Origin: a virus
Virus record (IMG/VR): IMGVR_UViG_3300000304_000008
Coordinates: 5,363 to 69,362 of that record
Reading direction: 5' to 3' (one strand)
Length of the DNA stretch: 64,000 nt
Part shown: positions 4,723 to 24,859 of the stretch, in pieces
Numbering within the stretch: position 1 is the stretch's first letter
Layout: each line of letters opens with the position of its first letter
Notes under the pieces: generated by a model
The model's database searches: none
Seen by the model: the letters and a program-made list of their open reading frames with translations, nothing else
What the model was told of the DNA's origin: nothing
Translations under genes and position numbers: made by a program

Positions 4723-5109
4723 ATGGAAGAAACAAAAAAGTACAATTTCGATGACGCAATCGCAAATGAAGAAACTACAAAAGTTCAATCAGCAGCTGTA
4801 ACTCGTGCAAAACAGAAAATGGAAGAAGAACAACTTGAACGTGATGCTCGTGAAGTACAACGCCGGTTAACTCGTGCAGATGAAGATGTAAAAAATGCTG
4901 AACGTGCCGGTAGATATGCTTCTAAAAAGAAGAATATCTTGAAAAAGTATTCTGAAGCGCTTGTTGAAGCGAAAAATCAGTTTGAAACTGATGGCGATTG
5001 GAAAGCATACGATAAGAAAATTAACGACCTCAAGAACGAAAAAGACAAATCTATTCGTGACGCAAAAGAGGCTGTTTACGGTGATGACGCATGGTGCATT
5101 TCCGACTAA
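4723..5109 (+). CDS. coiled-coil hypothetical protein
   Basis: 128-aa charged helical ORF. Confidence 0.8.
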   Translation: MEETKKYNFDDAIANEETTKVQSAAVTRAKQKMEEEQLERDAREVQRRLTRADEDVKNAERAGRYASKKKNILKKYSEALVEAKNQFETDGDWKAYDKKINDLKNEKDKSIRDAKEAVYGDDAWCISD

Positions 5110-5149
5110 TCCTAGTCTAATGTTTTAATACTAAAAAGACTATTTTATC

Positions 5150-5470
5150 GTAGTAACATATAGAGGAAGTGAAGGTTCTATAGACGCGAGGGACTTCCGA
5201 AAGTGTTATAAGATAAATGCGAAAGCAAGTAAATAACTTAATGTTAATACTCTGGATTAATAATATGTCGTTTCTCATGACTTTAAAAGAGACAGTCTGT
5301 AACCAAGTACTATATGGAAAGGAATGTGTTAGACTCTGAGAGCGCATCAGACTAATCTAAGGATGAAAAAATGTACATATTATCAAAATATAGATATAGG
5401 TGTGTGTCGTAGAACCTTTAGTTCAATTGAGTCCCAGTAATGGTGAGCACTTGCTAACATCTATATTCTA
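5150..5470 (+). ncRNA. candidate structured RNA upstream of tmRNA
   Basis: Hairpin 5165-5198, closing helix 5394-5403/5457-5466, long-range pairs 5171-5180/5410-5419 (10 bp) and 5190-5195/5430-5435 (6 bp), GNRA hairpin TGC-GAAA-GCA. Confidence 0.5.
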
Positions 5471-5626
5471 TCAAAGAGGTCTATCATTTATTATATTAAA
5501 TAATATGCTTTATGCTGTATTATATAGTTTATACTTTATGTTCATACTATAAATATATATTTAAATATGCTTAGGCTAAAACAATATATATTAAAATAAT
5601 ACTTATTTAATATAATTAACTTATTA

Positions 5627-5937
5627 AGTATGAGGAGCTTAATTGTTCCTCATACTACTATATGACTGTTAGGTCATTATACAGTTGTTAAGACGAGGGT
5701 TCGATTCCCTCTAGCTCCACGCTCTATGAGCACAAGGAAAAACATCATTTAGGTTTCTACTCTTCTTTTCCTTAAATAAAAAAGAAGAGATTAGGGGCTA
5801 ACTGGTTTTGATTAGCAACAAGATATAATGAATAGGTCATATAATTGTCTAAATGGCAATAAATTTGTTACAGACTATACTCGGATTGCAGCGTAATCTA
5901 AGTATAGCAGGGCTAAGCTAATGTCCTAGAAAGCTGG
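5627..5937 (+). ncRNA. ssrA: tmRNA, circularly permuted (two-piece) form
   Basis: T-arm GAGGG-TTCGATT-CCCTC (5695-5711) plus acceptor 3' strand TAGCTCC-A (5712-5719) lie upstream of 5' strand GGGGCTA (5794-5800), giving a 7-bp stem with G3.U70; helix 2 pairs 5659-5690 with ~5813-5853; tag frame 5855-5896 GNKFVTDYTRIAA*; outer ends approximate. Confidence 0.9.
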
Positions 5938-5982
5938 TGTGTGTAGTTGGTATTACTAGGTTCGAATCCTAGCACACAACTA
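5938..5982 (+). ncRNA. tRNA-like minihelix (acceptor stem plus T-arm only)
   Basis: TGTGTG/CACACA 6-bp stem, CTAGG-TTCGAAT-CCTAG T-arm, 12-nt linker replacing D and anticodon arms, 3' ACTA. Confidence 0.6.
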
Positions 5983-6013
5983 ATAATATTGTTTAATTTA
6001 AATTTATACGCGT

Positions 6014-6223
6014 ATGAGAACAGTAAATCAAAGAAAAGCAAGTACCCGTAATCATCAATTAATGCTGTTAGCTGGTATGATTACTAATCTTAACAGTATG
6101 GAAAGACAATGTGCATCTATACCTATTAGAGATCATATTGATAAAGTAAAAAATAGTATTCAAAAACTTCAAAATGCTATTTTTAGAAGTGAAACTAAAG
6201 ATTGGATTGAACAACCTTATTAA
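6014..6223 (+). CDS. small hypothetical protein
   Basis: 69-aa ORF, first of a packed operon. Confidence 0.7.
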   Translation: MRTVNQRKASTRNHQLMLLAGMITNLNSMERQCASIPIRDHIDKVKNSIQKLQNAIFRSETKDWIEQPY

Positions 6224-6225
6224 TT

Positions 6226-6543
6226 ATGAATAGAGGTAGACATCATTATCAAATGGATGAAATAGTTAAACTAGCAAAACAATATGGCGCACATTATCCT
6301 AAAGCATGGAAAAATAGTATTTCTCATGAAAATCTAATAAATTTAATTAATACTCAAAAAGAAAAGTGTGGATTTAATGATTTACATATTTTTGAAACTA
6401 ATTTTACTAGTAGTGATATAACTAAAGGTGGATTTAACTGGGGTAGAACTGAAGAAGGCTTTTATTTTTGGCAAAAAGTTTTAGAGAGATTATACTATAG
6501 AATACTAAATTATAAAAGTAAATCAAATCAAAAAAAACACTAA
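6226..6543 (+). CDS. hypothetical protein
   Basis: 105-aa ORF with aromatic FNWGRTEEGFYFW motif. Confidence 0.75.
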   Translation: MNRGRHHYQMDEIVKLAKQYGAHYPKAWKNSISHENLINLINTQKEKCGFNDLHIFETNFTSSDITKGGFNWGRTEEGFYFWQKVLERLYYRILNYKSKSNQKKH

Positions 6544-6556
6544 TAATTAAATTAAA

Positions 6557-6874
6557 ATGAATCAATCAAAAGGCTTAAGAATAGCTATCAAGCATTATAT
6601 GCCTGAAGCTTGGGAAAAAATTCTTAGAAAATATAAAATATATCAACAATATGTTGAATATGTTTATATGTCTTTACCAGATTATATGAAAGGTTCTAAA
6701 ATATATTATGGTAAAGTAGGATGGTGTATTGGCTTAAATAGAATTAAATTTATATTCAAAAATTGGGCTATTGATGAATGTATACAAGGTCAATATAAAC
6801 AAGCATTTAAAAAACCAATATTTTGGAATAAAATTAAAGCCGAAATTATGCAATATAATCAAAATTGTAGATAA
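6557..6874 (+). CDS. hypothetical protein
   Basis: 105-aa ORF. Confidence 0.75.
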   Translation: MNQSKGLRIAIKHYMPEAWEKILRKYKIYQQYVEYVYMSLPDYMKGSKIYYGKVGWCIGLNRIKFIFKNWAIDECIQGQYKQAFKKPIFWNKIKAEIMQYNQNCR

Positions 6875-6876
6875 TT

Positions 6877-7074
6877 ATGGAAATAATTTCATATGTAAAA
6901 TGGACAGAACCTGGTGAATATAACAGATTTTGTGAATTAATTACATCTACAAAAGATAATATTGAATTAAAAGATAAAATTATGAAATCTTTTAATGTAG
7001 ATAAAACTACAGCAAATATTATAATTTTGAGATACAAAAACAAAATTAATACATTACGTTTAAAAAATAGTTAA
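6877..7074 (+). CDS. small hypothetical protein
   Basis: 65-aa ORF. Confidence 0.65.
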   Translation: MEIISYVKWTEPGEYNRFCELITSTKDNIELKDKIMKSFNVDKTTANIIILRYKNKINTLRLKNS

Positions 7075-7077
7075 TTT

Positions 7078-7554
7078 ATGGCAAAAGAATTAAAAGAGGG
7101 CATATATATTGCTCAAAGTCCAGAGATTAATATACTCATCAGAGTGGCTGGAAAAGCACCATTATTATCAATAATTGGCGCAATCGATTTGAATAAATTT
7201 TATCAAACCGGTAAAGTAGAGAATTTATCAGAAAATTCTATTGAAGTATTAGACATTATGTCTTGCCCTGAGAAGTATCGTTTTGAACCACCTTCAATTA
7301 CATCTGCAATTGAAAGTACTGGTATTAACAAAGAATTAGGTCGTACTCTCAGTGATATAACAGATGATGAGGAATCAGAATTTGTTCGCAAATATCAAGA
7401 ACTTATACGATTATATGGTTCTTGTGACAAAGCCGATAATCGTATGATTCTTTGGCTTAAAAAAGAAAAGAATATTGCAATTTCACAAGGTAGATTTGTG
7501 ATTGAAAAGATTAAAAAATTAATTCAGTCATATGGAACTCAAAGAGATTGTTAA
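7078..7554 (+). CDS. hypothetical protein
   Basis: 158-aa ORF overlapping the next gene. Confidence 0.8.
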   Translation: MAKELKEGIYIAQSPEINILIRVAGKAPLLSIIGAIDLNKFYQTGKVENLSENSIEVLDIMSCPEKYRFEPPSITSAIESTGINKELGRTLSDITDDEESEFVRKYQELIRLYGSCDKADNRMILWLKKEKNIAISQGRFVIEKIKKLIQSYGTQRDC

Positions 7555-7990
7555 CATTCTTAACAAAAATTTAGATTGGGACTTCAAATTTAATTTAGAC
7601 ACTATTTATCAATCTTTAGCTGTATATGATGGTACTAAAATTAGTGGATTTGTATGTTATCTTAATAGTATTATAAAAGATTATTCAGTCATGCCTAAAA
7701 ATTTTACATGGGATATGTATGCAGACCAAAAATTAAAAGTACTTCAATTAAGCTATTGGATTAATGAACATATATTTATGGAATCCTTACAAAAATTGTG
7801 TGATAATAAACCTCCAATGCATCAAACAATGTATGTAAGATTAAGAATTGCTATAAATATGATAGATAAATTAAATTTAAGAAATTCTCAAAAATTAGAA
7901 TGGCAAGACCATTTAAGGTTGGTTTGTCATAGTAGAAATTTAGTTATGAGTAATTATTATTTAGATAATATTATTCAATTGCCATTCTAA
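7532..7990 (+). CDS. hypothetical protein
   Basis: 152-aa ORF. Confidence 0.8.
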   Translation: MELKEIVNILNKNLDWDFKFNLDTIYQSLAVYDGTKISGFVCYLNSIIKDYSVMPKNFTWDMYADQKLKVLQLSYWINEHIFMESLQKLCDNKPPMHQTMYVRLRIAINMIDKLNLRNSQKLEWQDHLRLVCHSRNLVMSNYYLDNIIQLPF

Positions 7991-8040
7991 TATTAGGGTG
8001 TAGGTTATTGGGTTAACCTACACCCACTAAAATTTAGCTT

Positions 8041-8604
8041 ATGGAACAGGAAATAATTACCTTAGTAGAGCAAGCTAAAAAAGGTTCAGAAAGAGCTTTT
8101 AATAGACTCTATAGACGTTATAGACCATTAATATGGAAAAATACATATAATATGGTTCATAATAGAGATTTAACTGATGATTTGGTATCTGTTATATTTA
8201 CTAAAGCATATACTAAATTAGATTCTTATGTTAATCATATTTCATTTGAAATGTGGCTAAAAACTATTGCTATTAATACAGTAATAGATTATATTAGAAA
8301 ATATAGGAATGAAAAGTTAAATGATTATGTAGATGATGAAAATTGTAATATACAATTAGAAGGTGAAGAATTATCACCTGAAGATAAATCTATATATAAA
8401 GAACAATTAGATTTAGCAATGAGTCTAATTCCTACTCTTAAACGTACTCATAGAGAAGTATTATTAGCTAAAATGGATGGATTATCTTATAAAGAAATAT
8501 CCGAAAAGCTTGCAATTGATGAAAGCTCTGTTAAGAGTCTACTCAATAAAGCAAGACAAATTTTAAAGCGTAAATTAAATAACATCAATACTAACAAATC
8601 CTAA
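8041..8604 (+). CDS. ECF-type RNA polymerase sigma factor
   Basis: Region 2-like AF..LY..Y...DDLV...F.KAY...F..WL..IA.N..ID..RK and region 4 HTH (GLSYKEISEKLAIDESSVKSLLNKARQILK). Confidence 0.85.
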   Translation: MEQEIITLVEQAKKGSERAFNRLYRRYRPLIWKNTYNMVHNRDLTDDLVSVIFTKAYTKLDSYVNHISFEMWLKTIAINTVIDYIRKYRNEKLNDYVDDENCNIQLEGEELSPEDKSIYKEQLDLAMSLIPTLKRTHREVLLAKMDGLSYKEISEKLAIDESSVKSLLNKARQILKRKLNNINTNKS

Positions 8605-8614
8605 CAATAATTTT

Positions 8615-8956
8615 ATGCTACAAATTTTTATTGCATTTATTGTAATGGCAATCGTTTGTCTTTTAATCGCGCGAATTAAGAAAGACTCACGAGTTTATAC
8701 TCAATTAATGTTGGGTGTATGCCTTGGATTTATTGTAGGTGCTTCAGTAAAGCATAGTATGACTACTGAAAGTAATAACCAACAGCAGGAAATAACTGCT
8801 CATCCCACGGTTCAATCTCCTGTATCATCTGTTGTAAGGAATGATACAGTGACATTTTGTGAACCGAGTAAGGATTTAAATGAGAGTGACACAGTTATAC
8901 CTACTGTTAGTTTACCTACTAGTCCACAAACAAATGAAATACAAGATGATTCATGA
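8615..8956 (+). CDS. membrane protein
   Basis: Two N-terminal hydrophobic segments and a polar tail. Confidence 0.75.
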   Translation: MLQIFIAFIVMAIVCLLIARIKKDSRVYTQLMLGVCLGFIVGASVKHSMTTESNNQQQEITAHPTVQSPVSSVVRNDTVTFCEPSKDLNESDTVIPTVSLPTSPQTNEIQDDS

Positions 8957-9025
8957 CTGAATAATGCACAGTATAAGTGAATTATTAAGTATTTCTAGTA
9001 TTAACAATTTAAAAACATTATCAAA

Positions 9026-10450
9026 ATGACAAAGAAATCTAAAGCAGAAAGAAAAGCTGAAAAGCTTGCTAAAGTAACAGCATCTAAGAATGCAGCAACT
9101 ACAAAAGTAGAAGATGTAAAAAAAGAAGTTACACCGGTTGAAGAAACAAAACCAGAACCTCAACCAGAACCTAAAAAGGAGGAAGTAAAAAATGAAACTC
9201 AAAAAGAAAAATCAATTGAAAAACCAGTTGAAAAACCCAAAGATACATCAGGAGACAAAACCAAAACTAAGCCTAAAACAACTACTTCAGTTAAGGCAAA
9301 AATCGAAGAAGTTGAAGCAGAAGTTGTTGAACCAATGGTTGATACCAAACCGAATAAGCAAACAATTGCTGGCAGCTTAAACGGTATTGCTAATGGTGAA
9401 CGTATTGATTTGAATCATGGCGTTGAATTAATGGGTATGATTCATAAGCAATATGTAACTAATCCAGATACACCTGAAGAATTGCGTAAAGCAATGAATA
9501 CACAATTTGATGCTATGGCATTTATTCATTTGTATCATTGGAATGAACAAACGAAGAATGATTTCAAAGAAGCCGGTATTAAAGTCAATTCAGAAATGTT
9601 TAATGCTATGTCTGATGCAGTTGCAAATGCATTAGGTATTACATTAGTTGGTTTACCTGTAAAGGAAGACCCAAAACAAATGAAAATTGACTTCGAAGCA
9701 ACAATGAAAGATGCTCCGCAAGAAGCAAAAGAAGCGATTGAAGCTGAAAAGAAAACAAAAGTTATTACTGAAGTACCGAAGTATGATTCTTCAATGACTG
9801 ATGAACAAGTTGTTGAAAATATTCGTGCTATTATGTCTATGCATAGTGGTAGTAATGGTATGAGTAATAATCTTGTAAACGCTGTTAATTTTGCACGTGA
9901 TGCATTTGGTCTTAAAGATGCACAACCTGCCGAAATTCTTGCTGTAATTCTTTCTAAGCTTGATACTCCGCACGTGTTAGTAAATTCCTTTCGTGCCATG
10001 GCTTACGGAAGTCTTCAAAAATGGGAAAATCCGTTCATATCTCATGCAAGATTCATGGCGAAACTTAAACCCTATTCATATACTGATAAAGAAGTAGCTG
10101 ATATTGTTCGTCTTTTTTTAGCAAATGCTATGGAGAACAATGCAAAAGATGATAAAAAATCATTAGAATCTACTGAAACAGCATATGAAGAACTTTTTAA
10201 AGCTTATAATGATTCATTAATTAATGAAATTATGGGCTGTGCGAAAGATTCTAAAAAGGTAGTAAAACTACCAGGAATAAAAGGTTTATCTATGAATAAT
10301 AAACCTATTGATTGTAAAGGAATCTTTCAGATAATGAAAGAAGCTTATGGTGATTTAAGCGATAAGCTTATGAAAAAACAGTTACAAACTATTGCAGCTT
10401 TATATATGAAGCCGATTGGTACCGTGGCAGATTATACTAAGTTGTCTTAA
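9026..10450 (+). CDS. hypothetical protein (474 aa) with K/E/P-rich low-complexity N-terminus
   Basis: Long ORF with no internal stop. Confidence 0.85.
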   Translation: MTKKSKAERKAEKLAKVTASKNAATTKVEDVKKEVTPVEETKPEPQPEPKKEEVKNETQKEKSIEKPVEKPKDTSGDKTKTKPKTTTSVKAKIEEVEAEVVEPMVDTKPNKQTIAGSLNGIANGERIDLNHGVELMGMIHKQYVTNPDTPEELRKAMNTQFDAMAFIHLYHWNEQTKNDFKEAGIKVNSEMFNAMSDAVANALGITLVGLPVKEDPKQMKIDFEATMKDAPQEAKEAIEAEKKTKVITEVPKYDSSMTDEQVVENIRAIMSMHSGSNGMSNNLVNAVNFARDAFGLKDAQPAEILAVILSKLDTPHVLVNSFRAMAYGSLQKWENPFISHARFMAKLKPYSYTDKEVADIVRLFLANAMENNAKDDKKSLESTETAYEELFKAYNDSLINEIMGCAKDSKKVVKLPGIKGLSMNNKPIDCKGIFQIMKEAYGDLSDKLMKKQLQTIAALYMKPIGTVADYTKLS

Positions 10451-10461
10451 TCGTTATCAAA

Positions 10462-10830
10462 ATGAAAAAATTTAATACAGTATTACTAACATTAATTGTC
10501 TTTACTATTTGTGGTTTTATTGGTTATAGTACCAATTATACTCAAACAGTAAAAGCTAATGATTCGCCAAAGATGCCTTTGGTAGTATTCAACACAGAAC
10601 CAGTAGTAACTGGTTTTAATATTAATCTTGATTTAAATACTGGTAAAGCAGTTGTACGCGATACTGATAGAGATATTAAGATTAATATACAAAGAAAAGA
10701 TAGTATTATTACTCGATGGAAAACTTCTATTGTAGAGAAGACTAAATATATTCGAGTAAGAGAATTACCTGCAATGCAAATGCCGAAGACAATTGTAAGT
10801 CTTCCTTTTACAAAGCCTGAAAAGATTTAA
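10462..10830 (+). CDS. exported or membrane-anchored hypothetical protein
   Basis: Signal-peptide-like N-terminus. Confidence 0.75.
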   Translation: MKKFNTVLLTLIVFTICGFIGYSTNYTQTVKANDSPKMPLVVFNTEPVVTGFNINLDLNTGKAVVRDTDRDIKINIQRKDSIITRWKTSIVEKTKYIRVRELPAMQMPKTIVSLPFTKPEKI

Positions 10831-10899
10831 TATTTATTAAATCTATTTTTAAGATAGTACAGGATACTATTAGTTAATTTTATAGCTACAACTATATAA

Positions 10900-12920
10900 T
10901 TAATGAAAAGTATGATAGTCCTATATGTTTATATACTATCTATAAACCGAAAAGTTATAGGAAAAATGGGAGAGTGTGCATAACCCATGTAATATAATGA
11001 TTGAGAACCGATTGGAGATGATTTATATTATAAAGACACAATTTATTCTGCTGTATCGTCGGAAGTGAATAAGTTAAACTCTGCAAAGGTATCGTTAACC
11101 TATCGTCCGCGTATAATCAATATATGAATCAAGAAGGGACAATAACACGTGCTGCAAACTTGCCAAACGGGTAAGTATAAAAACCTCCATTAGCTCCAAA
11201 CTATATGGTTGAATTTAAAAGCAGGACTGACTAACGTCCTAGGGTGTCTCCAAAACATCCTTGCGGTTTTGTAAACGCTAAAAATATATCAAACATAGTG
11301 TTCTATACGTCAACCTATGGAAGTTGGCTCTAAAGAGCTTAAAAACGTATATATGAAGGTGTTATATTATATTATACATAGTACTACTTATAATACTAAG
11401 TAAGTGAGTAGTAGATTGCGTGTTCTAAGAACTGTATGCAAAACTTCAATTGTAATGAAGAAATGTCTATCGCAATGCAAGGGGAACCGGTACCTAGCTA
11501 ATCTAGACGTAGAGTAAGGATAGTTGCAAGACTATATTCTCAGTTTAATGGGATTGTGTAAATCAAGTGTATATATAATAGAAGTGATCGATTGTCATTT
11601 ATATCACTATAATATCTAACGTGCTTTGCACTGGTGTATGACAAATGACTCTGGCGGATGAAGGGCGCCAAAACCCTATTTCAATAAACAACGATTTGAT
11701 ATAAGTTGTTCGTATAAATAAGTTACTCAGGACTAGAACTGGGTTGTGGAATTCTAGGCAAGGTGGGACAGCAATCCTAATCGCTGTATATGGCACAATC
11801 TACGTACATTCCAGTACGAATTGAAAGAGACCATATTAAATATCGGAACTTATTTAAGTCACAATAACGCAGAATATTATTAGTATAGATGTATACTATA
11901 AGAAGTGTAAGTCATTGTTGGAAGATATTAATTAACTTAATGTATAATATTTTAAAAAATGAGGAAGTTCAATGGACGTAGAAATACTTCTCCACCCTCG
12001 ACTGTACAATATAATTGCTTAAACGAAAATCATTGACAGCAAATCATGATGTAAGTATCGCTGAATCGAAATAAATTTCTTCTCATTAGAGAAATTGATT
12101 GATGATAGGTGGAAATCCTAAAATTATGTGCAGTATAAGAACAAAGTCGTAAGTACACGCAGACGGCACAAAGACGTCTATAAATAAAACAAGTGGGCAT
12201 TGCGAAACACCAATGGCTTGTTCATAGTTTTGTGTAACGGTTTTCAACAAAATCGACCGGCTTTTAAGTCGACAATAACTAAAATTTGTTTGCCTATAGA
12301 AAATACCAAAAACTATTATTAACTATCTAAAATTATAAGCGTATGAACAAATTAATTTTTAACCACCATTTAATATAATATCGAGCACGCCTAAATTTAG
12401 TCGCTGTTAGGCTCGTTAAATAATCAGGGAAAGAATCGAACTCCTCTCGTTAACAGGAAAAACATAATACTATTAGAATTACTTATATTAATTTATGGGC
12501 GTAGCTATTCCTACCGTTGGAATCCCGTTATACGTTTTCTAACATATAACTACATTGATATATAATTTCACAAAATAGTATTTCGATAAATGATAAGAAG
12601 AACAGTTGACTCATCTGTCTCATGAGTAAAGTCCTACGGGGAATGCTGAAAGAGTAATAACTCTTAATCTAGTATTACATTTATCATTAAACTAACAAAG
12701 ACTCTCAAATTGTTATAATCTTATTTTATAGAATTATTTGTTTGGCACAAATATTAACGTTAAGTTCATAATGTTATATGATATAACTATCCTCATTCAA
12801 AGCTTTATAAAAGCGTACTATTAAGAACATAGTAAGGATAAATAAAAAGAATTTGACAGAGATTATTTAACTAAATGTTTAATTTATCCGTGGTGACATC
12901 AATCACGGAATCAAAAAAGG
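10900..12920 (+). ncRNA. ~2-kb non-coding tract, candidate large structured RNA(s)
   Basis: No credible ORF; many short hairpins (11158-11176, 11223-11240, 11241-11261, 12106-12120, 12382-12415, 12609-12627, 12887-12909); strand assumed from flanking genes. Confidence 0.4.
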
Positions 12921-12928
12921 ATAATTAA

Positions 12929-13474
12929 ATGGATAAAATTTTAGAATTTACAGAATCCGAACTGAATCAGTATCGAGCTGTGTTAGCTATTTATGGACAA
13001 TATTATGGTAAAAAAGTAGTTAGTCCGTTAAGTGAAAATCTTGATTTAGATCATGCAGAAAAGGAAAAGAAGAATATTAATCCTCGCTTTGCAAAGGCTA
13101 TTAAGAAATTTTTCACGAAGTCTTATACTTTAACATCTTTTGATTTAACTCGAAATGCAAATGGTAAAGTATGCATTACTATTAATCATGACCCGCAATT
13201 AACTTTCCCATTAGTTGCAAATGATAAACCATCAATGCTTGAATCAAGCGAAGAGGCTATTACTAATGCTCTTATTCAGCATCAGACCAGTGGAAAAATC
13301 ACTTTTTTTACTGATTTAGAAAAGGTAAATGAAGTAATTACTAATTTGAATGAACAAAATGCACGAGATTTGGAAGATTTTGCAGATTCTTGTGTAAATT
13401 TTGCTTCAGCATTGCGAAATATTAATACCGCAGAACGACAATCTGTTACAGACTATTTGAATTCTCTTAAATAA
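12929..13474 (+). CDS. hypothetical protein
   Basis: 181-aa ORF. Confidence 0.8.
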   Translation: MDKILEFTESELNQYRAVLAIYGQYYGKKVVSPLSENLDLDHAEKEKKNINPRFAKAIKKFFTKSYTLTSFDLTRNANGKVCITINHDPQLTFPLVANDKPSMLESSEEAITNALIQHQTSGKITFFTDLEKVNEVITNLNEQNARDLEDFADSCVNFASALRNINTAERQSVTDYLNSLK

Positions 13475-13483
13475 TTGTAATCT

Positions 13484-14002
13484 ATGGAAGATGCAGTAAA
13501 AATTAATCCGTATAAGTTGGATATGCTGCGTCTCTTGTTAAAAGATCCAAAAATTCAATCGTGTGTTATTTGGGATGGAGAAACAGCGAAAGAATTTTTA
13601 GTAAAAGACAATGGAGATATATTGTTAGGTAGATGTAAATATGGTTGGGTTAATCATCTATTTAATTCATATAAAGAAATTGACTTTTTCACAATGGCAA
13701 GTAAGATTGCAGTATGTGTAACAGGCTCTGTTAAGAAAGTAAATCCGGATTTGGTTGGGATATTCGATGAAATTTTAAACAAAGTTTTAATTACAAACAA
13801 TAGAGAACAAATAATAGACTTATTATTTCAATATGTCGTTTTGTTTGATGAAGATAGTGTATTCTCTTCTAAGTTTATTCAAGGGAATGCTCTTAGGTCA
13901 CGAAATAAAGATGACCCAAAATCTAGAACTATAGGAAAAGTTGCTTTGGACTTGGGTGGATGTTTCCTAGGCGATATACCAATTATTTTAGATAAATCAT
14001 AG
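13484..14002 (+). CDS. hypothetical protein
   Basis: 172-aa ORF ending at TAG. Confidence 0.8.
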   Translation: MEDAVKINPYKLDMLRLLLKDPKIQSCVIWDGETAKEFLVKDNGDILLGRCKYGWVNHLFNSYKEIDFFTMASKIAVCVTGSVKKVNPDLVGIFDEILNKVLITNNREQIIDLLFQYVVLFDEDSVFSSKFIQGNALRSRNKDDPKSRTIGKVALDLGGCFLGDIPIILDKS

Positions 14003-14099
14003 AATAAACAAAAATATAAGTGTGGGATGGATTAGCTTATAGTAATGCATCATAATCGTTAAGATGTGGATGGATAAGTCTTAACGACTATGATGTTTA

Positions 14100-14160
14100 T
14101 AGCTAGTATGGTAACTTTATGGTTGGGAAGATTGATAGTTCGATTCTATCTCTAGCTACA
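14100..14160 (+). ncRNA. degenerate tRNA-like element
   Basis: TAGCTAG/CTAGCTA stem plus GATAG-TTCGATT-CTATC T-arm, 27-nt interior with no proper anticodon arm. Confidence 0.45.
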
Positions 14161-14213
14161 CGGTAAACGATTATACATGGTTTTAGTATTAATAATTAAA
14201 ATCAATATAATCA

Positions 14214-14711
14214 ATGAAATCAAAAGCTAATAAATTAATTGAAAAACGAGATAAATTATCTACAGATATTACTAAGTATTGGAATATTATTAATGTTGAA
14301 AATGTAGTTAATAAAAATTACAAACGTCATTATGAATTAAAAGAACTTTATAATAGTATAGTAGAAATGTGCAAAGAACGTGCTATGACTAAATTAAAAG
14401 CTCTTTGTATTAATATGGGTATTCGTAATTTTAAAGATTTACCAGCAGATAATATTCAAAAAGATATCTTTATACTTAGTGAATTAAATGAAATCAAAGT
14501 ACGATTAAGCAAAGTACGTACTATTAATCCTAAATTAAAGATTTCCAAAGGTAAAAAGAATCTTAATAAAACAGAAGTTTTAACTTCTAATTGGATTAAA
14601 GCTCGTATTGATGAACTCGATTTACAAATTATAGAAATTAAAGATAAGCTTAATAAATTTAATGAATCTGCGGAACTAGAAGAAGAAACTCCTATGGAAT
14701 TAGCCGCATAA
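14214..14711 (+). CDS. coiled-coil hypothetical protein
   Basis: 165-aa ORF. Confidence 0.8.
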   Translation: MKSKANKLIEKRDKLSTDITKYWNIINVENVVNKNYKRHYELKELYNSIVEMCKERAMTKLKALCINMGIRNFKDLPADNIQKDIFILSELNEIKVRLSKVRTINPKLKISKGKKNLNKTEVLTSNWIKARIDELDLQIIEIKDKLNKFNESAELEEETPMELAA

Positions 14712-14735
14712 TGTTTAATCAATAAATAAATCAAT

Positions 14736-15419
14736 ATGATTGTTCCAGAATTTATCAAAAATAGTAACAAATTTAGTAATACTTGTAAAATAGTAAAAAT
14801 AACAACTCATCATCGTAATGATGATATCGATGGTACACATAAAAAATCAACAGTAAGAGAATATTTTACTTGGTCTAGAAGAGGTAGAGAAGCTCTTGAA
14901 GCTTATCATCGTTCTAAAACACCAGTAAATTATTCTCAGTATAAAAAACCAAAAGAAAAAAAGAAATCTCTTTCGAAAGAAGAAAAGCTAGCATTAAGAC
15001 AATATTCTGAATATCATTATAAGCTTATTAATCAAGCTTATGGTAAAGAAAGTGCAGAAAATCGTCTACTAAAACAAGCTGCATTAAATGATGCACATGA
15101 AATAGCGATTGAAAATTTAATGGCTAGACTTAAAATTTATAAATATAGTCTAAAATTCAGAAATTCAAAGAATTGTAAATATAAAATAGTAGTGTGGGTT
15201 GAGAATGAAAAACATAAACCTATAATATTTACAGAGAAATACGTTCCTAATGTTACTCAAGCTGTTCATGAAGCAGCTAAAACATATAATAGTAATATGA
15301 GTAAATATATGTTTTATCATCATACTAGTATATATGATATTGAGAATAAACGTCCTGTAGCTATATTTACACGTAATTTAATTGAATTTAAAGAAGCTGT
15401 TACAATGTGTGCAGCATAA
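14736..15419 (+). CDS. basic hypothetical protein
   Basis: 227-aa ORF. Confidence 0.8.
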   Translation: MIVPEFIKNSNKFSNTCKIVKITTHHRNDDIDGTHKKSTVREYFTWSRRGREALEAYHRSKTPVNYSQYKKPKEKKKSLSKEEKLALRQYSEYHYKLINQAYGKESAENRLLKQAALNDAHEIAIENLMARLKIYKYSLKFRNSKNCKYKIVVWVENEKHKPIIFTEKYVPNVTQAVHEAAKTYNSNMSKYMFYHHTSIYDIENKRPVAIFTRNLIEFKEAVTMCAA

Positions 15420-15432
15420 TTCTCTATAGAGA

Positions 15433-15512
15433 AGCGTAGGGGAGTTATGGAATACTCGCATACGATTCCATGGCGTATGAATTAATCAGTTCGAATCTGG
15501 TCTACGCAACTA
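15433..15512 (+). tRNA. tRNA-like gene with non-canonical enlarged anticodon loop (identity unresolved; central triplet CCA)
   Basis: Acceptor GCGTAG/CTACGC, D-arm GAGT/ACTC, anticodon stem CATACG/CGTATG with 9-nt loop ATTCCATGG, 5-nt variable loop, T-arm ATCAG-TTCGAAT-CTGGT. Confidence 0.6.
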
Positions 15513-15523
15513 AATTAGTAATT

Positions 15524-17371
15524 ATGAAAATAAGAAATAAAATAGTTTATGTTTATGATATAGAAGTATTTAGAAATGTATTTCATTGTACATTACTTAA
15601 TACTGAAACAGAAGAACTTATAAAGTTCGAATGTTCTATACGTAAAAATAATATAGAAGAAATGTGTAAATTCTTTAAACAAGATGCATATTTCGTAGGT
15701 TATAATAATATACATTATGATAATCCGATAATAAACTATTGTATTGAATATTTTTCTAATTCTAAATACACATATAATAAAATTTGTTTATCAATATTTA
15801 ATTTATCAAATATTATTACACAAGATAAGGAGAATATTGATAGATGGAAACGTTGGAAATATGCCAATAATTTTCTAACAGTTGATTTACTTACTATGCT
15901 TTATAGTAAAGCATTACGAGTATCTTTAAAAGAAATGCAAGTAACAATGATGTATAAAAACGTTCAAGAATTTAATCAAGATTGGAATAGTAATTTAGCA
16001 GACAATAATATAGATTCTATGATAGAATATAACATTAATGATGTTATGTCTACTTATGAATTATTAAAAAGATGTGAAAAAGATATTCAATTACGATTAA
16101 ATATTGAAGACCAATACCATATTCATTGTCTTTCTAAAGATGGTGTAAATATTGGTATGCAAATATTAGCTGAAGAATACATGAATAAAACAGGTATATC
16201 TTGGGATATACTTAAAAATATGCGTTCACCAGCAGACATCATTGATTTAAATGAAATAATTTTACCAATAATAAAATACAATACACCAATTTTACAAGAT
16301 TTATTAAATGAAATGAAACAATTAAAAGTTTCACCTGGTAGAAAAGGTTATGAAAAACAATTTCTATTAGAAGATTTAACAATATCTGTTGGTGTAGGTG
16401 GTATTCATAGTATTAATGAACCAGAAATTATAATACCAAATGAAGATGAATTACTTGTAGATTTAGATGTTGCATCACTATATCCTTCAATGCTATTAAA
16501 TTTTAATTTTTATCCTAGACATTTAGGTAAAGAATTTAAAGAAATCTATCAAGAAATAAAAGATAGACGAATATATGCAAAGAAAACAGGTGATACAGTA
16601 ACTAATGAAACATTAAAATTAGCTTTAAATGGTTTATCAGGTAATTTACAAAATGAATTTAGTTGGTGTTATGATCCTAAATCAGTAATGGGTATTAGAA
16701 TTAATGGTCAATTATTACTATTAATGCTTACTGAAAGATTAATTGCTATTGGTGCAAAACCTATTCAATTAAATACTGATGGTATATTTTGTAAAATACC
16801 AAAAAATAATTATGAATTAGCTAAACAAATATGTAAAGAATGGGAATCTTTAACAGGTTTAATTCTTGAAGAAGATAGATTTAAATCTTTTTATCAATTA
16901 GCTATTAATGATTATTTTGGTGTATTTGAAAATGGTAAAATAAAAGAAAAAGGTTGCTTTATAACAAAAGTAAAATTAGGTAAAGGATTAAGTCCTAAAA
17001 TCATACCTAAAGCTGTAGAAAAATATTTTCTTGAAAATATTAAACCTAAAGATTATATTCCTACAGTAACAGATATTAAAGATTTTTTAATGTCTGAAAA
17101 AACTGGAAAACAATGGCATGTTGAATATAATAACACGTCACAACAAAGAACAAATAGATTTTATGCTTCTACCGATGGTTATTATTTATATAAATGGAAA
17201 GATAATCAAGGAATTAAAGAATATCAGAATATGCTTGTAGCATCTGGTGTTACTTTATTAAATAATTTTGATGATTTAAAAGAAAATCCTAAAATTAATT
17301 ATCAATATTATATTACAGAAGCAAATAAAATTATAGCACAATTTAAAAATAAACAACTATCGTTGTTCTAA
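15524..17371 (+). CDS. polB: DNA polymerase, family B
   Basis: Exo I YDIE, motif A DLDVASLYPS, motif B KLALNGLSGN, motif C NTDG; start placed at MKIRNK because the upstream ATG lies inside the tRNA-like gene. Confidence 0.92.
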   Translation: MKIRNKIVYVYDIEVFRNVFHCTLLNTETEELIKFECSIRKNNIEEMCKFFKQDAYFVGYNNIHYDNPIINYCIEYFSNSKYTYNKICLSIFNLSNIITQDKENIDRWKRWKYANNFLTVDLLTMLYSKALRVSLKEMQVTMMYKNVQEFNQDWNSNLADNNIDSMIEYNINDVMSTYELLKRCEKDIQLRLNIEDQYHIHCLSKDGVNIGMQILAEEYMNKTGISWDILKNMRSPADIIDLNEIILPIIKYNTPILQDLLNEMKQLKVSPGRKGYEKQFLLEDLTISVGVGGIHSINEPEIIIPNEDELLVDLDVASLYPSMLLNFNFYPRHLGKEFKEIYQEIKDRRIYAKKTGDTVTNETLKLALNGLSGNLQNEFSWCYDPKSVMGIRINGQLLLLMLTERLIAIGAKPIQLNTDGIFCKIPKNNYELAKQICKEWESLTGLILEEDRFKSFYQLAINDYFGVFENGKIKEKGCFITKVKLGKGLSPKIIPKAVEKYFLENIKPKDYIPTVTDIKDFLMSEKTGKQWHVEYNNTSQQRTNRFYASTDGYYLYKWKDNQGIKEYQNMLVASGVTLLNNFDDLKENPKINYQYYITEANKIIAQFKNKQLSLF

Positions 17372-17419
17372 CAAAAACTCTCAGATGATCAGTTCGATAG
17401 TCAAAATATGTGAAATATT

Positions 17420-17977
17420 ATGATACTAGAATTAGATTCATCTTTATTCAATAAAATAGAGGATTTATCAATTAATCAATTAGTATTTTTAACGCTGTGT
17501 TTGAATAATAATCAAACTAATCATCAAGATATTCACCAGTTTCTCAGCCGAATTAGTGAAACAGAGATACAGCAGTTAATCGACAATGGATATATTGCCA
17601 TTACTACTTTGGACAATAATATAGTATATGAAATAACAGATAAATTGAAAGAAATTCTTGGTAAAAAAGAAGATTACTTTCAATTATTTTATGATACTTA
17701 CCCAATTTATGTAGTTAGACCTGATGGTACAAAAGGATTTTTACGAGGAAATATTAATAAATGTCGTAAAGAATTTAATCGTATAGTAGGTCAATCTAAA
17801 ACTATGGCAGAACATTTATTAGAATGTCTTAATTTTGATATACAAGAAAAAACTATGTATGGAAAATTAGGATATTTTAAAACAATGTGGAAATGGCTTG
17901 TACAACATGAATGGGAATCCATTGAAGAACAAATGAATTATAATTCAATAGAAACATATGGAACAGCAATTAGCTAA
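17420..17977 (+). CDS. putative replication initiator or helicase-loader-like protein
   Basis: Overlaps dnaB start; N-terminal wHTH-like pattern; function inferred from position. Confidence 0.5.
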   Translation: MILELDSSLFNKIEDLSINQLVFLTLCLNNNQTNHQDIHQFLSRISETEIQQLIDNGYIAITTLDNNIVYEITDKLKEILGKKEDYFQLFYDTYPIYVVRPDGTKGFLRGNINKCRKEFNRIVGQSKTMAEHLLECLNFDIQEKTMYGKLGYFKTMWKWLVQHEWESIEEQMNYNSIETYGTAIS

Positions 17978-19770
17978 ACGAATCGATGAGGTTACTAAAG
18001 AAACCTTACGATATATCGAAGATAGAAGAAAACATAATATTGTTTCTCTTAAAACTCGATGGAATAAGTTTAATAAAGTATGTTTCTTTGAACCTAATAT
18101 GATTTATACTGTTGCCGGTACATCTGGTGCAGGTAAAAGTGCATTTGTAAATATTATTACTAATGATTTAATTGATTTTAATACTTCTCAGGATATAGTT
18201 ATTCTTAATTTCAGTTTTGAAATGTTAAGCTATAGAAATGTTGGTAGATTACTTTCAAATAAATTGAAAATGACTACTAATGATTTATATAGCAATGAAA
18301 AAGACATTACAGATATTGAATATCAACAAATAGAAGAAACGGCTAAGTCACTAGAAAAAAAGAATATCTACTATATAGATACTCCAATGACTGTTGATAA
18401 AATAGAAGAAACTATAGTACAATTTCATAATACTATCGCTAAAAATAAATGGTTAATAATAGTATTAGACCATACGTTATTAGTAGAAGGTGATACTGAA
18501 AGAGGTACTCTCATCGATTTACAGAAAATGTTTATACGAGTAAAGAAATTAGAAAAGACTAGTATTATACAGATTTCACAGATGAATCGAAATATTGAGA
18601 CTCCTGAAAGAATTAATAATCCTGTAACTCACTTCCCAATGAGAAGTGATTTATCAGCTTCTGATGCTATATTTCAAGCTAGTGATTATGTATTAGTAAT
18701 TCACCGTCCAGAAATACTCAATAAAATGTATGTTGAGTCTAAACTCCGTTAAACGGTGAAAGTCCGATGGGATAACGCCGTACCAAGCTTATATAGAAAT
18801 ATATAAGTAGTGTCTAACGACTATTAGTGAAACTAAAGCTATATAGCTATGTTAATAAATTCTAACACGAAAGCGGGGAATATAACTTTTAATATAATTA
18901 TTCATTCCATATAAATAAATAAATAATAAATATTTTATGGAACTAATAATAAACAATAAAAAATATAGTATTTCTTCAAGAAGAAAAGTACAATATAATG
19001 ATAACGAACCATTATTTTATTGTACTAAATGTAAACAATATTTACCAATTTCTTCTTTTGAATTAAAATGGAATAATTCAAAGACAGAAAAAAATAATAT
19101 ACGTAGTGAATGTAAACAATGTAGATGTGAAGAAAGTCGTCTTTATCATTTTTACAGAAGAAGAAAATATACAGATTTAGTAGCTAAAGAAAAAATAATA
19201 CATTTAGATAAATTAAAACATGATTTAAATTATCATAATCAAATACTTCTTTGGAAATCTGCTAAACAACATGCAAAAAAATTAAATATTGAATTTACCA
19301 TTCAACCTACAGATATTATTATTCCTACAAAATGTCCAATTCTAAAAAAGGATTTTATATTACACGATAAAAAATATACATATTCTATTGATAGAATTGA
19401 TAATAATAAAGGTTATGTAAAAGGCAATATTGCTGTAATTTCAAGATTAGCAAATATAATGAAAAATTGTGCTTCAAAAGAAGAATTATTATTATTTTCT
19501 AAAAATATTAAAAGCTATATTAAGAAATAGTCTGAACTATCTATATAAATGAAAAGATAGATGTATAAGATAAAGAGCTTATACGATAACAATATGTTAC
19601 AATTTTACGGGGTTAATCGTTTACCTGCAAGAAATAAAGTTTATCTCCACTTACTTAAAGTAAGAGAAGGAGAGCCATGTATCCTCGTATTTGAAAATAA
19701 TTTAAAATACGGTGATTTAATTGAAACTACATTAGAAACTGAAAAACAAACTAAAGTAGTATTTAAATAA
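17958..19770 (+). CDS. dnaB: replicative DNA helicase, split by a group I intron: join(17958..18722,19597..19770), 312 aa
   Basis: Walker A AGTSGAGKS, LDH, SQMNR and SDAIFQASD motifs; splicing gives ...HRPEILN|LQFYGVNRLP... Confidence 0.88.
18723..19596 (+). mobile_element. group I intron in dnaB
   Basis: Exon CTCAAT pairs with IGS GTTGAG (U.G at splice site), P7 AACGACTA (18816-18823)/ATAGTC (19527-19532), terminal G, P10 AAAATGTA/TACAATTT; splicing restores frame. Confidence 0.88.
18937..19530 (+). CDS. intron-encoded HNH-type homing endonuclease
   Basis: CxxC..CxxC plus SIDRIDNNKGYVKGNIAVISRLANIMK; lies between the two P7 strands. Confidence 0.8.
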   Translation: MELIINNKKYSISSRRKVQYNDNEPLFYCTKCKQYLPISSFELKWNNSKTEKNNIRSECKQCRCEESRLYHFYRRRKYTDLVAKEKIIHLDKLKHDLNYHNQILLWKSAKQHAKKLNIEFTIQPTDIIIPTKCPILKKDFILHDKKYTYSIDRIDNNKGYVKGNIAVISRLANIMKNCASKEELLLFSKNIKSYIKK

Positions 19771-19786
19771 TAAAAGGCTGAAAATT

Positions 19787-20284
19787 ATGAAAAAGATTTA
19801 TTTAAACGATAATAACACCACTATTAAAGATAAAATTACAAACGCAATTGCAAATAAATATCCGATGTTTGGTATTAAACCAAAAACTGAATTACATCTT
19901 GATGATTTAGTCTTTACAGCATATGAACCTGTAAATACAAAAGCTATTCAAATTCCGTTCTTAGCTTGGTTTAAGAATGAAATTACAGATAAACTTCGTT
20001 ATGGATTATTTGCAAAGTCTAAAGAAGAAAAAGCTAAAAAGAATCTTGCACTTATGGCAGCTATGGAACGGTTACGTAAGTATGCAGCAGAATTAAAAGA
20101 TAATGAAGAAGACGACGATGAACTATTCTTCATGGGTAAACGAATTAAGTTCTATGATAACTTTATTCAAGTAGGTTCAGAGATTATTTCTCTGTATGAT
20201 TACATGCCGTATTTTAAGAAGAATAAAAAGAATGGTATTACTATTCAGTTCATGATTAGTCTTAGCGATGAACTTGATTTATAA
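19787..20284 (+). CDS. hypothetical protein
   Basis: 165-aa ORF within replication module. Confidence 0.8.
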   Translation: MKKIYLNDNNTTIKDKITNAIANKYPMFGIKPKTELHLDDLVFTAYEPVNTKAIQIPFLAWFKNEITDKLRYGLFAKSKEEKAKKNLALMAAMERLRKYAAELKDNEEDDDELFFMGKRIKFYDNFIQVGSEIISLYDYMPYFKKNKKNGITIQFMISLSDELDL

Positions 20285-20357
20285 TTCTTTACTATTGAAA
20301 TAACTAACAAATACTCTCAAATTCTATCAGATTTCTTTAGTAGTTAAACATTTTATT

Positions 20358-21919
20358 ATGATAATACTACCAAAAGAAAAAACACAGCCAGTTAAAAACT
20401 CTATTAAATTTATGATATTATTTGGTAAGCCAAAAGCCGGTAAATCATCGGCTATGGCTGCCTTAGATTATAATCTTATCATAGATTTAGAAGATGGTTA
20501 TAAAGGTTTAAGTGCTTTAGTAGTACAAGCTAGAAACATTAATGATTTTGGCGAAATAGCTAAAGCAATAAAAGAAGAAATTAAAGAAACAGGTAAATTT
20601 CCATATAAGTATATTACTATAGATAACGCTACCAGACTTGAGGAAATATGTATGGGGTATGCTATTACACTCTGAATTGCGGAGCTTCATATAGCGATAT
20701 ATGATGAAAAATTCCTTGAATTTCTGGAACATCTTTCCTTGATATACGTTTTTCACAAGGAAAGACAATCAGAAGCTAAGTATTATGAAACAGGAAACTT
20801 TAAAAAAATACATTAATCATACTTTTGGTAATTATACAGTTTTAGATATTGACCACGAAGAATATAATAAAGAAAATTATAGAAAACGTACATATTTTAA
20901 ATGTAAATGTAATAGATGTGGAAAAGAATGTATTGTAAGGTCTGATAAAATGACTTCAAAAAGATTTCCACCAAAGTGTTGTCAATATTGTATGAATAAC
21001 CAACAAAAAGAAACAGCAGAAAGAAAATATAAAATAAAAGATACAAAATATTTAAGAGATAGAATAAATTCTATTAGAGGTAATGCAAAAACAAGACATT
21101 ATAATATGGAACTAACAAATGAGCAAATATTAAATATCATAAAACAACCATGTTATTATTGTAATCAAGAAATTGCATTAGGTATTGATAGATTAGATTC
21201 TACTAAAAATTATACTTTAAATAATTGTGTACCTTGCTGTTTTATTTGTAATAGAATGAAAAATAAATATTCATTACAAACTTTTTTAGAAAAAGTTCGA
21301 TTAATTTACAATAAGTTTTATAATAAAAGTTCAACGACTATCTCGAAAGAGAGTACATCTGAAGCTAACGCAGATGGAAGCAGGGAACATCTTAACGTTG
21401 CTTAAGATGATGATATAGTCTAATCTGTATGGTAACATACAGCAGTTCATAAGAGAACGTATATAAGAGTTGCGTCTTATATAGAATATAAATGACAAAC
21501 AAACACCTCAAGGTAAGAATTATCAAGGTACTGATATTCGTACTTTACCTCAAGGTGCAGGTTATAATTATTTAAGAACAGCTGTTCGAAAAGTAATTGA
21601 TATGTTTCGTAGTTTATGTGAAACATGTATACTTGTAGCTCATGTTAAAGAAAAAATGATTAATGTTGAAGGTGAAGAAATGTCAGAAATGACACTTGAT
21701 TTAACAGGTAAATTAGGTGATATACTATGTGGTGAAGCTGATGCTATTGGCTATGTATATAGAAAAAAGAATGAAACTATAATTTCATTTGAAGGTGGAA
21801 TGAACTCTATTAGAGAAGCTCGACCAATTCATTTACGTGGCAAAAAAATAGTAATAGGCGAAAGTGATGAAAATAATAATTTAATTTTTCATTGGGATAA
21901 AATATTTTTACCAGAATAA
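20358..21919 (+). CDS. AAA-family ATPase (Sak4-like), split by a group I intron: join(20358..20673,21495..21919), 246 aa
   Basis: Walker A FGKPKAGKS, IIDLE and TIDNAT motifs; splicing gives ...AITLY|KQTPQGKNY... in frame with the 21602 ORF. Confidence 0.8.
20674..21494 (+). mobile_element. group I intron in ATPase gene
   Basis: Exon CTCT pairs with GGAG (U.G), CAACGACTAT (~21332) / ATAGTCT (~21415) P7, terminal G at 21494; splicing restores frame. Confidence 0.85.
20785..21405 (+). CDS. intron-encoded HNH homing endonuclease
   Basis: CKCNRCG, CYYC, GIDRLDSTKNYTLNNCVPCCFICNRMK. Confidence 0.85.
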   Translation: MKQETLKKYINHTFGNYTVLDIDHEEYNKENYRKRTYFKCKCNRCGKECIVRSDKMTSKRFPPKCCQYCMNNQQKETAERKYKIKDTKYLRDRINSIRGNAKTRHYNMELTNEQILNIIKQPCYYCNQEIALGIDRLDSTKNYTLNNCVPCCFICNRMKNKYSLQTFLEKVRLIYNKFYNKSSTTISKESTSEANADGSREHLNVA

Positions 21920-21937
21920 ATTTAAAAAATATTAGTT

Positions 21938-22537
21938 ATGGGATATAATAAAGAAGCAGCGTTAAGCGTAACGGATTATAAGTCGAATTATATTGCAGCA
22001 GGTATTCAGGAAAATATTACATTAGATAAAGTAGAAGTTGCGACTTCACCAACAGGTAATAAATATTTTCAATTAACGTTTAGTAATGATGAAGGTCAGA
22101 TTGCTACTCATACTGAGTGGGAACCTAAAATGGGAGCTTTTACTAAAACTGAAGCCGATCTTGACCGAGCTATGAATCGACAATATAAGCGTATGTTGCA
22201 GATTCTTATGTGTTTTTATAAAGACGAACAAATTAACTTTAATGGTGAAAAGTTTATTGATTTTGCAAATTATATAGCTACAATGCTAAATTCAGCAGAT
22301 AAATCAATTAAACTTCGTGTTAAGTTCGTATACAATTCGAAAGGATTTATTGTTTTGCCGAGTAAGGTTGATAATATATTTATCGAACCTATGAGTATTC
22401 CTAAAGAAGAATCTAAGATTGAAATTAAATCTGATGATATTATTACTCGTCCTATTATTGCTGATAAAGAAATTAAAAACGATAATCCTTTAGATGAAAA
22501 GAAAGAAGAAGAAAATAATAATGATTTACCGTTTTAA
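21938..22537 (+). CDS. putative single-stranded DNA-binding protein
   Basis: Acidic C-terminal tail ending DLPF; located between ATPase and primase. Confidence 0.55.
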   Translation: MGYNKEAALSVTDYKSNYIAAGIQENITLDKVEVATSPTGNKYFQLTFSNDEGQIATHTEWEPKMGAFTKTEADLDRAMNRQYKRMLQILMCFYKDEQINFNGEKFIDFANYIATMLNSADKSIKLRVKFVYNSKGFIVLPSKVDNIFIEPMSIPKEESKIEIKSDDIITRPIIADKEIKNDNPLDEKKEEENNNDLPF

Positions 22538-22631
22538 ATAAATTCATACTAGGCGAAGAGGATAGTCACTGAATTAAATTAAGGCTCTTACTACTTTCGG
22601 TGGATGTGGAAATAACCGAATATTCTTTCTA

Positions 22632-22674
22632 GGAGTGAAAACGTAATGGGGATTCGTATTCCCCCACTCCACTA
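22632..22674 (+). ncRNA. tRNA-like minihelix (acceptor stem plus T-arm only)
   Basis: GGAGTG/CACTCC, GGGGA-TTCGTAT-TCCCC, 10-nt linker, 3' ACTA. Confidence 0.6.
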
Positions 22675-22686
22675 AATTAAGTAACT

Positions 22687-24857: not shown

Positions 24858-24859
24858 AT

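Follow-up and report, generated by a model that had tools for sequence, protein, structure and literature searches.

A gene-free stretch at a fixed place in Suoliviridae genomes is very probably a new family of large structured RNA

We report a candidate RNA locus in a 64,000-nucleotide (nt) stretch of viral DNA, positions 5,363 to 69,362 of the IMG/VR record IMGVR_UViG_3300000304_000008, here called the window. The locus and the leader of the next gene fill a gap of 2098 bases (10831-12928, + strand) between two co-oriented genes, 10462-10830 and 12929-13474. We consider it likely that this gap is a functional structured-RNA locus, and it very probably constitutes a novel family of large RNA in the Suoliviridae. 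The gap lacks coding capacity, keeps its place and length, is under purifying selection and shows covariation in three distinct modules, all in favor of this reading. The original prediction, made from the bare letters of the window, had proposed a large phage non-coding RNA (ncRNA) at this place, and the coding, synteny, Rfam and covariation checks all support it. Judged by its sequence, the phage is a TAG-recoded member of the Suoliviridae (the delta crAss-like family), because its late genes depend on TAG and its DNA polymerase (15470-17371) has 68% identity to that of the crAss-like phage cr6_1 and 50-60% to those of other Suoliviridae. The public runs in which its DNA occurs come from animal guts, often those of chickens.

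The longest open reading frame (ORF) of the gap under translation table 11 has 65 amino acids (aa), and the longest stretches between two stops measure 90 aa with code 15 and 103 aa with code 4, scattered over frames and strands. Hence, the claim that these ~2.1 kb hold no credible ORF stands under codes 11, 4 and 15, and the code-15 translation suggested as a check, here extended to code 4, uncovered no hidden ORF. The homologous gaps of seven other contigs received zero genes from independent gene callers, and the + strand genes of the window (1-26363) are readable in the standard code. The gap was also said to be more G/C-balanced than its surroundings, and it is: the G+C content is 0.346 in 11001-12000 versus 0.25-0.30 in most neighboring kilobases. 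RefSeq annotates small ORFs inside the homologous region: a 53-aa ORF in cr114_1 (L002, 2308-2469), one of 53 aa in cr125_1 (L003, 1824-1985) and one of 61 aa in cr10_1 (L256, 6387-6572), the last likewise within the conserved 5' part of the locus. These are not common between lineages and are probably spurious calls.

Comparison of the syntenic region, which had also been proposed, showed that place and length are kept across the Suoliviridae: an ORF-free gap of ~1.85-2.5 kb lies at one syntenic place in more than 90 contigs and in nine RefSeq Suoliviridae, spanning five subfamilies. In blastn searches against phage records, pieces of the gap were matched in cr6_1, cr114_1, cr125_1 and cr115_1, all of which have an unannotated stretch of 1.85-2.2 kb within one common gene order: sigma factor, small protein, ~460-aa protein, ~125-aa protein, gap, and proteins of ~185 aa and ~175 aa. 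A locus search from one protein gave no loci; a profile search with the downstream protein succeeded and yielded 72 IMG/VR loci, all of which, where they reach far enough, show an ORF-free gap of 2.04-2.25 kb. Scans with the most conserved 19-22-mer added further viral and metagenome contigs of the same synteny, and homologues of the 474-aa protein encoded upstream led to seven more lineages with gaps of 1.86-2.25 kb. Gaps of 2.1-2.5 kb occupy the same place in cr52_1 (Loutivirinae), in cr1_1, cr10_1 and cr50_1 (Boorivirinae) and in cr124_1 (Oafivirinae).

Between clades, blocks of the gap retain 80-96% nucleotide identity, as against 21-37% identity of the flanking proteins. A nucleotide profile of 13 lineages, used with nhmmer, recovered the locus in cr1_1 (E 1.8e-55), cr10_1 (1.6e-38), cr52_1 (2.8e-26, with a second match over window positions 11958-12419 at 7.7e-17) and cr50_1 (5.5e-20); most of the signal in other subfamilies maps to 10850-11407. 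The conserved blocks are dispersed through the gap without clear boundaries. Across 55 distinct cr6_1-like contigs, diversity is 0.019-0.036 over most of the gap, compared with 0.04-0.075 in the coding flanks, and it rises to 0.07 over the 250 nt that immediately precede the next gene, a stretch that includes a less constrained spacer (12681-12886, +; 0.07 versus 0.02-0.036 in the gap body). The gap body is therefore under purifying selection that equals or exceeds the selection on its neighbors, and the profile places the end of the constrained part just after the 3' motif described below.

The alignments show successive hairpins, whose stem sequences vary among clades with retention of pairing. 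For the first 590 nt in 13 lineages, RNAalifold gave 47 pairs, 34 of them changed on both sides; seven overlapping windows over the same lineages gave 116 pairs, 75 of them compensated. With 20 lineages, 78 of 94 pairs are compensated, and 94-96% of the pairings are standard versus 30-55% with shifted partners. Column-shuffle z-scores for the RNAalifold windows were discarded, as the shuffles gave zero energy. We further built covariance models for three modules, with counts that are flattered by the fitting of each alignment to its own model and with which MAFFT-based counts agree in direction: R1, the 3' motif (12594-12680; 26 sequences, 19 pairs, 97.5% standard, 10 changed on both sides, 33-52% standard when slid); R2, the 5' module (10914-11108; 17 sequences, 24 pairs, 96.9% standard, 18 changed on both sides, 31-51% when slid); and R3, the middle module (11570-11700; 20 sequences, nine pairs, 99.4% standard, eight changed on both sides, 29-63% when slid). 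For each of the three, 0 of 500 shuffles did as well. The covariation test, another of the checks proposed at the outset, thus came out strongly in all three modelled modules. The R2 model, built without Boorivirinae and Loutivirinae, recovered both at E 1e-15 to 1e-25 with their stems compensated, which is a successful prediction on held-out lineages. An unbiased helix scan of the 13 lineages gave a modest excess over a parallel-direction control, modest because the alignment between clades is poor outside the blocks. With 20 lineages, a single long-range helix, 11366-11372/11573-11579, showed strong Watson-Crick covariation, against no such helix in the parallel-direction control.

The most widely conserved part of the locus is its 5' domain (10850-11407, +), to which most of the profile signal and the 47 RNAalifold pairs belong. 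Its range covers the Bearivirinae, Uncouvirinae, Boorivirinae, Loutivirinae and the window's own clade, or four of five subfamilies. The 5' end of the locus may overlap the final codons of the upstream ORF, whose length differs among lineages. The R2 module is made up of the + strand helices 10919-10925/10956-10962, 10927-10931/10943-10947, 10967-10970/10984-10987 and 11087-11090/11098-11101, with the conserved single-stranded blocks GAGAACC and AAGACGC between helices. It is followed by a hairpin with an AUCAA loop and then AAUCAAGAAGG (11103-11142, +), enclosed by the helix 11105-11108/11137-11140; this element resembles the leader of the next gene (12887-12922). Further on are two adjacent hairpins (11222-11261, +), the second of which has a conserved CUCCAAA loop on a helix (11242-11247/11255-11260) of 5 bp, 3-4 of them covarying, and the first of which varies with compensation. 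These correspond to two of the stems listed in the original prediction: 11241-11261 is predicted on multi-lineage alignments with compensatory changes, as are 12106-12120 and 12609-12627 farther downstream, and covariation in 11223-11240 is visible by eye. A further listed stem, 11158-11176, falls in a clade-specific insertion. Next come the invariant block UAGUGUUCUAUAC (11293-11306) and the helices 11293-11296/11359-11362 and 11304-11310/11345-11351 (together 11293-11362, +), which show 3-4 pair types at consecutive positions. The long-range helix then closes a sub-domain (11366-11579, +) whose interior length differs among clades.

The middle module R3 (+), present in 20 closer lineages, contains the helices 11583-11588/11603-11608, 11622-11624/11628-11630, 11657-11658/11681-11682 and 11662-11665/11674-11677, the first of these being a hairpin with six different stem sequences. 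Further conserved modules follow on the same strand (11802-12220): the helix 11802-11807/11814-11820; a GGAAGUUCAAUGG block with 11966-11969/12000-12003 and 11973-11976/11991-11994; and the helices 12106-12109/12117-12120, 12148-12150/12157-12159, 12190-12194/12216-12220 and 12198-12202/12211-12215. Beyond them is a lineage-variable region (12260-12590, +), where no consensus structure of all lineages is found and which is conserved and foldable within the window's clade. The hairpin 12382-12415, another of the stems first proposed, is indeed conserved and predicted, but solely within this clade; the same range applies to an element at ~12488-12535.

The 3' core motif (12594-12680, +) comprises 87 nt with four covarying helices, near-invariant junctions GUAAAGUCCUACGGGGAAUG and a trailing UCUAGUA. 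It occurs in one copy per genome and is 90-96% conserved where the remainder has diverged to ~50%. In L260 its outer helix is compensated once again, CCGU/ACGG replacing CAGU/GCUG, and in L088 and L185 its 5' half is replaced. A search of bacterial genomes and metagenomes with the core motif gave true matches in crAss-like contigs only; six other matches (L166, L168, L178, L190, L193 and L196) are chance 19-mers in unrelated contexts. A closing helix around the motif, formed by the pairing 12589/12681 that had been suggested from the window alone, did not survive comparison: it exceeds shuffled AT-rich flanks in only one of 15 lineages and does no better than them overall. Placed where the constrained region ends on its 3' side, the motif behaves like an accessory module; it could help to form an RNA end, act as a ribozyme or provide a binding site.

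The + strand is likely to be the RNA strand, because of an excess of G-U pairs, the consensus energies of the 13 lineages and the direction of all neighboring genes. The modelled helices contain 63 G-U versus three A-C combinations, with some positions being G-U in most or all sequences; among pairs predicted on both strands the counts are 20 and 10. The energies favored + in every 13-lineage window having a consensus structure.

Among known RNAs, no family matches the gap in the cmscan search that had been suggested. With Rfam 15, whose families include GOLLD, ROOL, OLE, RNase P, group I and group II introns, rRNA, riboswitches and self-cleaving ribozymes, a search of the whole window at gathering thresholds returned only a Hatchet ribozyme and a permuted transfer-messenger RNA (tmRNA), with nothing in the gap, and a permissive search of 10700-13000 to E=10 gave one chance-level match, rpsL_ricks, at 27.8 bits versus a 60-bit cut-off. 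ARAGORN found no tRNA in the window and only the tmRNA at 5630-5987. A self-splicing group I or group II intron was rejected, as each flanking ORF is a complete gene of its own in every lineage and no intron model matched. Likewise dropped, for want of support from an Rfam model, were the likeness of GAGUAAAGUCC to the RNase P CR-I sequence GAGGAAAGUCC and those of CCUACGGGG and AAGUCGUAA to 16S rRNA strings. Full-text searches of the literature on non-coding or structured RNA of crAss-like phages and Crassvirales, together with the main comparative paper (PMC7886860), yielded no description of the locus.

In descriptive terms, the gap has the features of large ornate ncRNAs: a length of several hundred nt or more, no coding capacity, covarying helices and conserved junctions. 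It is most like GOLLD and ROOL in kind, and a member of neither. It shares with GOLLD the character of a very large, many-helix, phage-borne ncRNA conserved by covariation; however, it matches no Rfam model, is about twice as long, and lies at a fixed place in the replication/early module of Crassvirales rather than beside tRNAs. ROOL (rumen-originating, ornate, large) is likewise a gut-associated, often phage-borne large structured RNA, but it is ~580 nt long, differs in taxonomic range and again provides no Rfam match. The UG27 reverse transcriptase (RT) systems of gut phages carry an ncRNA with three long stem-loops beside the RT gene (Mestre et al., 2022; PMC9226505). This too is a conserved structured non-coding region of uncultured gut phages, some near Crassvirales (PMC9226505), whereas our locus is far larger and its four neighbor proteins contain no RT or other Pfam domain. 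A different kind of likeness is to ribosomal-protein mRNA leaders that mimic rRNA sites, in that the 11103-11142 element recurs in the leader of the next gene; in the case of the gap locus, however, this is a sequence pattern alone and may simply be ribosome-binding context.

That leader (12887-12922, +), immediately ahead of the start codon of gene 12929-13474, combines a hairpin whose loop reads AUCAA with a subsequent AAUCAAAAAAGGA. It is kept in all five subfamilies with varying stems, and was detected in cr1_1 with an nhmmer E of 4e-7. The stem proposed at 12887-12909 is thus a genuine hairpin with conserved loop and varying stem in all subfamilies, but it forms part of this leader. In the window, the pattern ATCA, 6-16 nt, RAATCAMRRR has five matches versus 0.45 expected, at 864, 11116, 12898 and 14201 (+) and 60206 (-); two of these stand just before start codons (12929 and 14214) and one inside the RNA. 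The recurring element could mark a common RNA-binding factor; alternatively, it could merely be the translation-start context of the phage. The look-alike is the only hint to mechanism that we found.

Taken together, these data suggest an RNA that would be transcribed from the + strand along with the surrounding early and middle genes and would span ~10850 to ~12680, roughly 1.8 kb. It would be built from numerous local hairpin modules, with highly conserved single-stranded junctions between them, in the order: 5' domain, middle domain, lineage-variable region and, in many lineages, the near-invariant 87-nt 3' motif. By analogy, we tentatively suggest that during infection it may scaffold proteins of the phage or the host, as in a ribonucleoprotein (RNP) or ornate RNA assembly, because the element of the 5' domain copies the hairpin-plus-AAUCAA(A)GG leader before the next genes. 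Such mimicry is typical where an RNA-binding protein regulates its own mRNA by imitating its main RNA target. A bolder version, which we deem unlikely, is that the whole gap is one RNA of ~1.8-2 kb assembling with the four adjacent orphan proteins into an RNP machine, either catalytic or reprogramming host translation or RNA processing, with the 3' motif as its active or end-forming center. If true, this would to our knowledge be the largest structured RNA from any phage.

Several observations weigh against reading the gap as a large structured RNA with such a function. The scaffold role is pure inference on our part, and the four neighbor proteins match no Pfam, PHROG or Atlas family that would give a functional clue. 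The 13-lineage profile found no match in the gap of cr124_1 (Oafivirinae). Contigs of four animal-gut RNA libraries, compared over 5001-25000, cover gap and genes similarly and cross the gap borders; they may be DNA carry-over and carry no strand, end or level information. A promoter scan gave 19 sites versus 13.8 +/- 3.5 by chance, with a sigma-70 consensus that is wrong for Bacteroidota hosts, and the scan of the gap for + strand terminators returned none. Consensus energies of 20 lineages are similar on both strands. Just one long-range helix was detected, nearly all supported helices being local. The modules also differ in range: as against four subfamilies for the 5' domain, R3 is confined to the 20 closer lineages and was not found in four subfamily representatives, and the 3' motif belongs to a subset, being absent from L261-L263, cr52_1 and cr1_1. 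These differing ranges mean that several RNAs fit as well as one. Within the RNA reading, an array of independent smaller RNAs (5' domain, middle modules and 3' motif), each with its own function and processing, is therefore a possibility to be taken seriously, consistent also with the local helices, with the variable 330-nt stretch that parts the 3' motif from the remainder and with the presence of other small structured RNAs, the Hatchet ribozyme and the permuted tmRNA, in this genome. However, the total length varies little even among lineages that have diverged strongly, which is easier explained by one unit, neither promoter nor terminator signals were recognized inside the locus, and the conserved blocks do not resolve into bounded segments.

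Readings other than a structured-RNA locus fare less well. The gap could be a long structured cis-regulatory 5' untranslated region of the operon 12929-14002 and onwards, acting on translation or stability: it is on the same strand directly upstream, the conserved hairpin and AAUCAAAAAAGGA immediately precede the start codon, and the RNA-library contigs continue from the gap into the next genes. We hold this to be quite improbable, as a stretch of ~250 nt, the least constrained of all, separates the most constrained part from the gene, and nearly 2 kb of conserved covarying structure goes far past any bacterial or phage leader that we know of. An element acting as DNA, for instance an origin of replication or a site for packaging or recombination, could use single-stranded DNA hairpins or R-loop priming, for which ColE1 RNA II and the T4 oriF/oriG origins are examples. 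In keeping with this, the gap stands where the replication module begins (polB at 15470), and the energies of both strands are similar with 20 lineages, but the dozens of covarying hairpins and the conserved junctions spread along 1.8 kb are more than an origin needs, and G-U pairs are kept on the + strand, some of them invariant. Further, the core motif is single-copy, no iterons or repeats were noted (with no dedicated repeat search of the gap), the gap is richer in G+C than its surroundings, and the cumulative GC skew turns at ~26 kb, where gene direction flips, rather than at the gap; we thus rate a DNA element as very unlikely. Least credible of all is a hidden coding sequence, whether for small proteins or as a recoded or split gene, despite the RefSeq ORFs of 53 aa (cr114_1, cr125_1) and 61 aa (cr10_1) and the recoding of TAG in the late genes: no frame is open under codes 11, 15 or 4, the annotated ORFs are not shared between lineages, substitutions track base-pairing rather than codon patterns, and none of the RNA-library contigs, weak evidence as contigs only, shows the two sides of the gap joined in the manner of a spliced form.

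The structured-RNA locus is always accompanied by the same neighbors on the + strand: upstream, the 474-aa and 122-aa proteins (9026-10830), and downstream, the 181-aa and 172-aa proteins (12929-14002). The 474-aa protein (9026-10450) has ~134 disordered, Lys/Glu/Pro-rich N-terminal residues followed by an all-alpha C-terminal domain in an AlphaFold2 model (predicted local distance difference test score 69 overall, 80-95 in the C-terminal domain), for which Foldseek found no match in PDB or in the AlphaFold database clusters. The locus comes after a sigma-factor block and before the replication genes. The former encodes an extracytoplasmic function (ECF)-type sigma factor (8041-8604, +) with Sigma70_r2 and r4_2 domains, followed by a small hydrophobic protein; in most related loci with the upstream region examined, the sigma factor sits 2-3 genes upstream of the gap, and it may drive transcription of the gap block.

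Elsewhere in the window, a full-length match to the Hatchet self-cleaving ribozyme (2726-2850, +; 88 bits versus a gathering score of 51 bits, E 5e-17) lies amid early genes, and the permuted, two-piece tmRNA (5630-5987, +; Rfam match 5662-5896, 58 bits) has the ARAGORN tag peptide GNKFVTDYTRIAA. The - strand late genes (26412-61146) can be read through only if TAG stands for Gln, and one gene has as many as 74 in-frame TAG codons; ARAGORN found no suppressor tRNA across the 64-kb window. In the cr6_1-like population, a hypervariable segment ~3 kb downstream of the gap (L007, ~7040-8460) has a diversity of 0.14-0.18, several-fold above the rest of the 8.5-kb stretch.

Recognition of this locus would correct the public annotation of the region, which is blank or filled with spurious small ORFs, and the three covariance models could become Rfam-style families. 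At ~1.8-2 kb, the locus would exceed twice the size of GOLLD and would offer a new target for RNA structural biology, such as cryo-electron microscopy of ornate RNAs, with the 87-nt motif as a possible new ribozyme or protein-binding core. The Suoliviridae are among the most abundant phages of human and animal guts, and compactness is strongly selected for in phage genomes. That ~2% of the genome is kept as a non-coding structured locus in every subfamily examined implies an important function at the RNA level.

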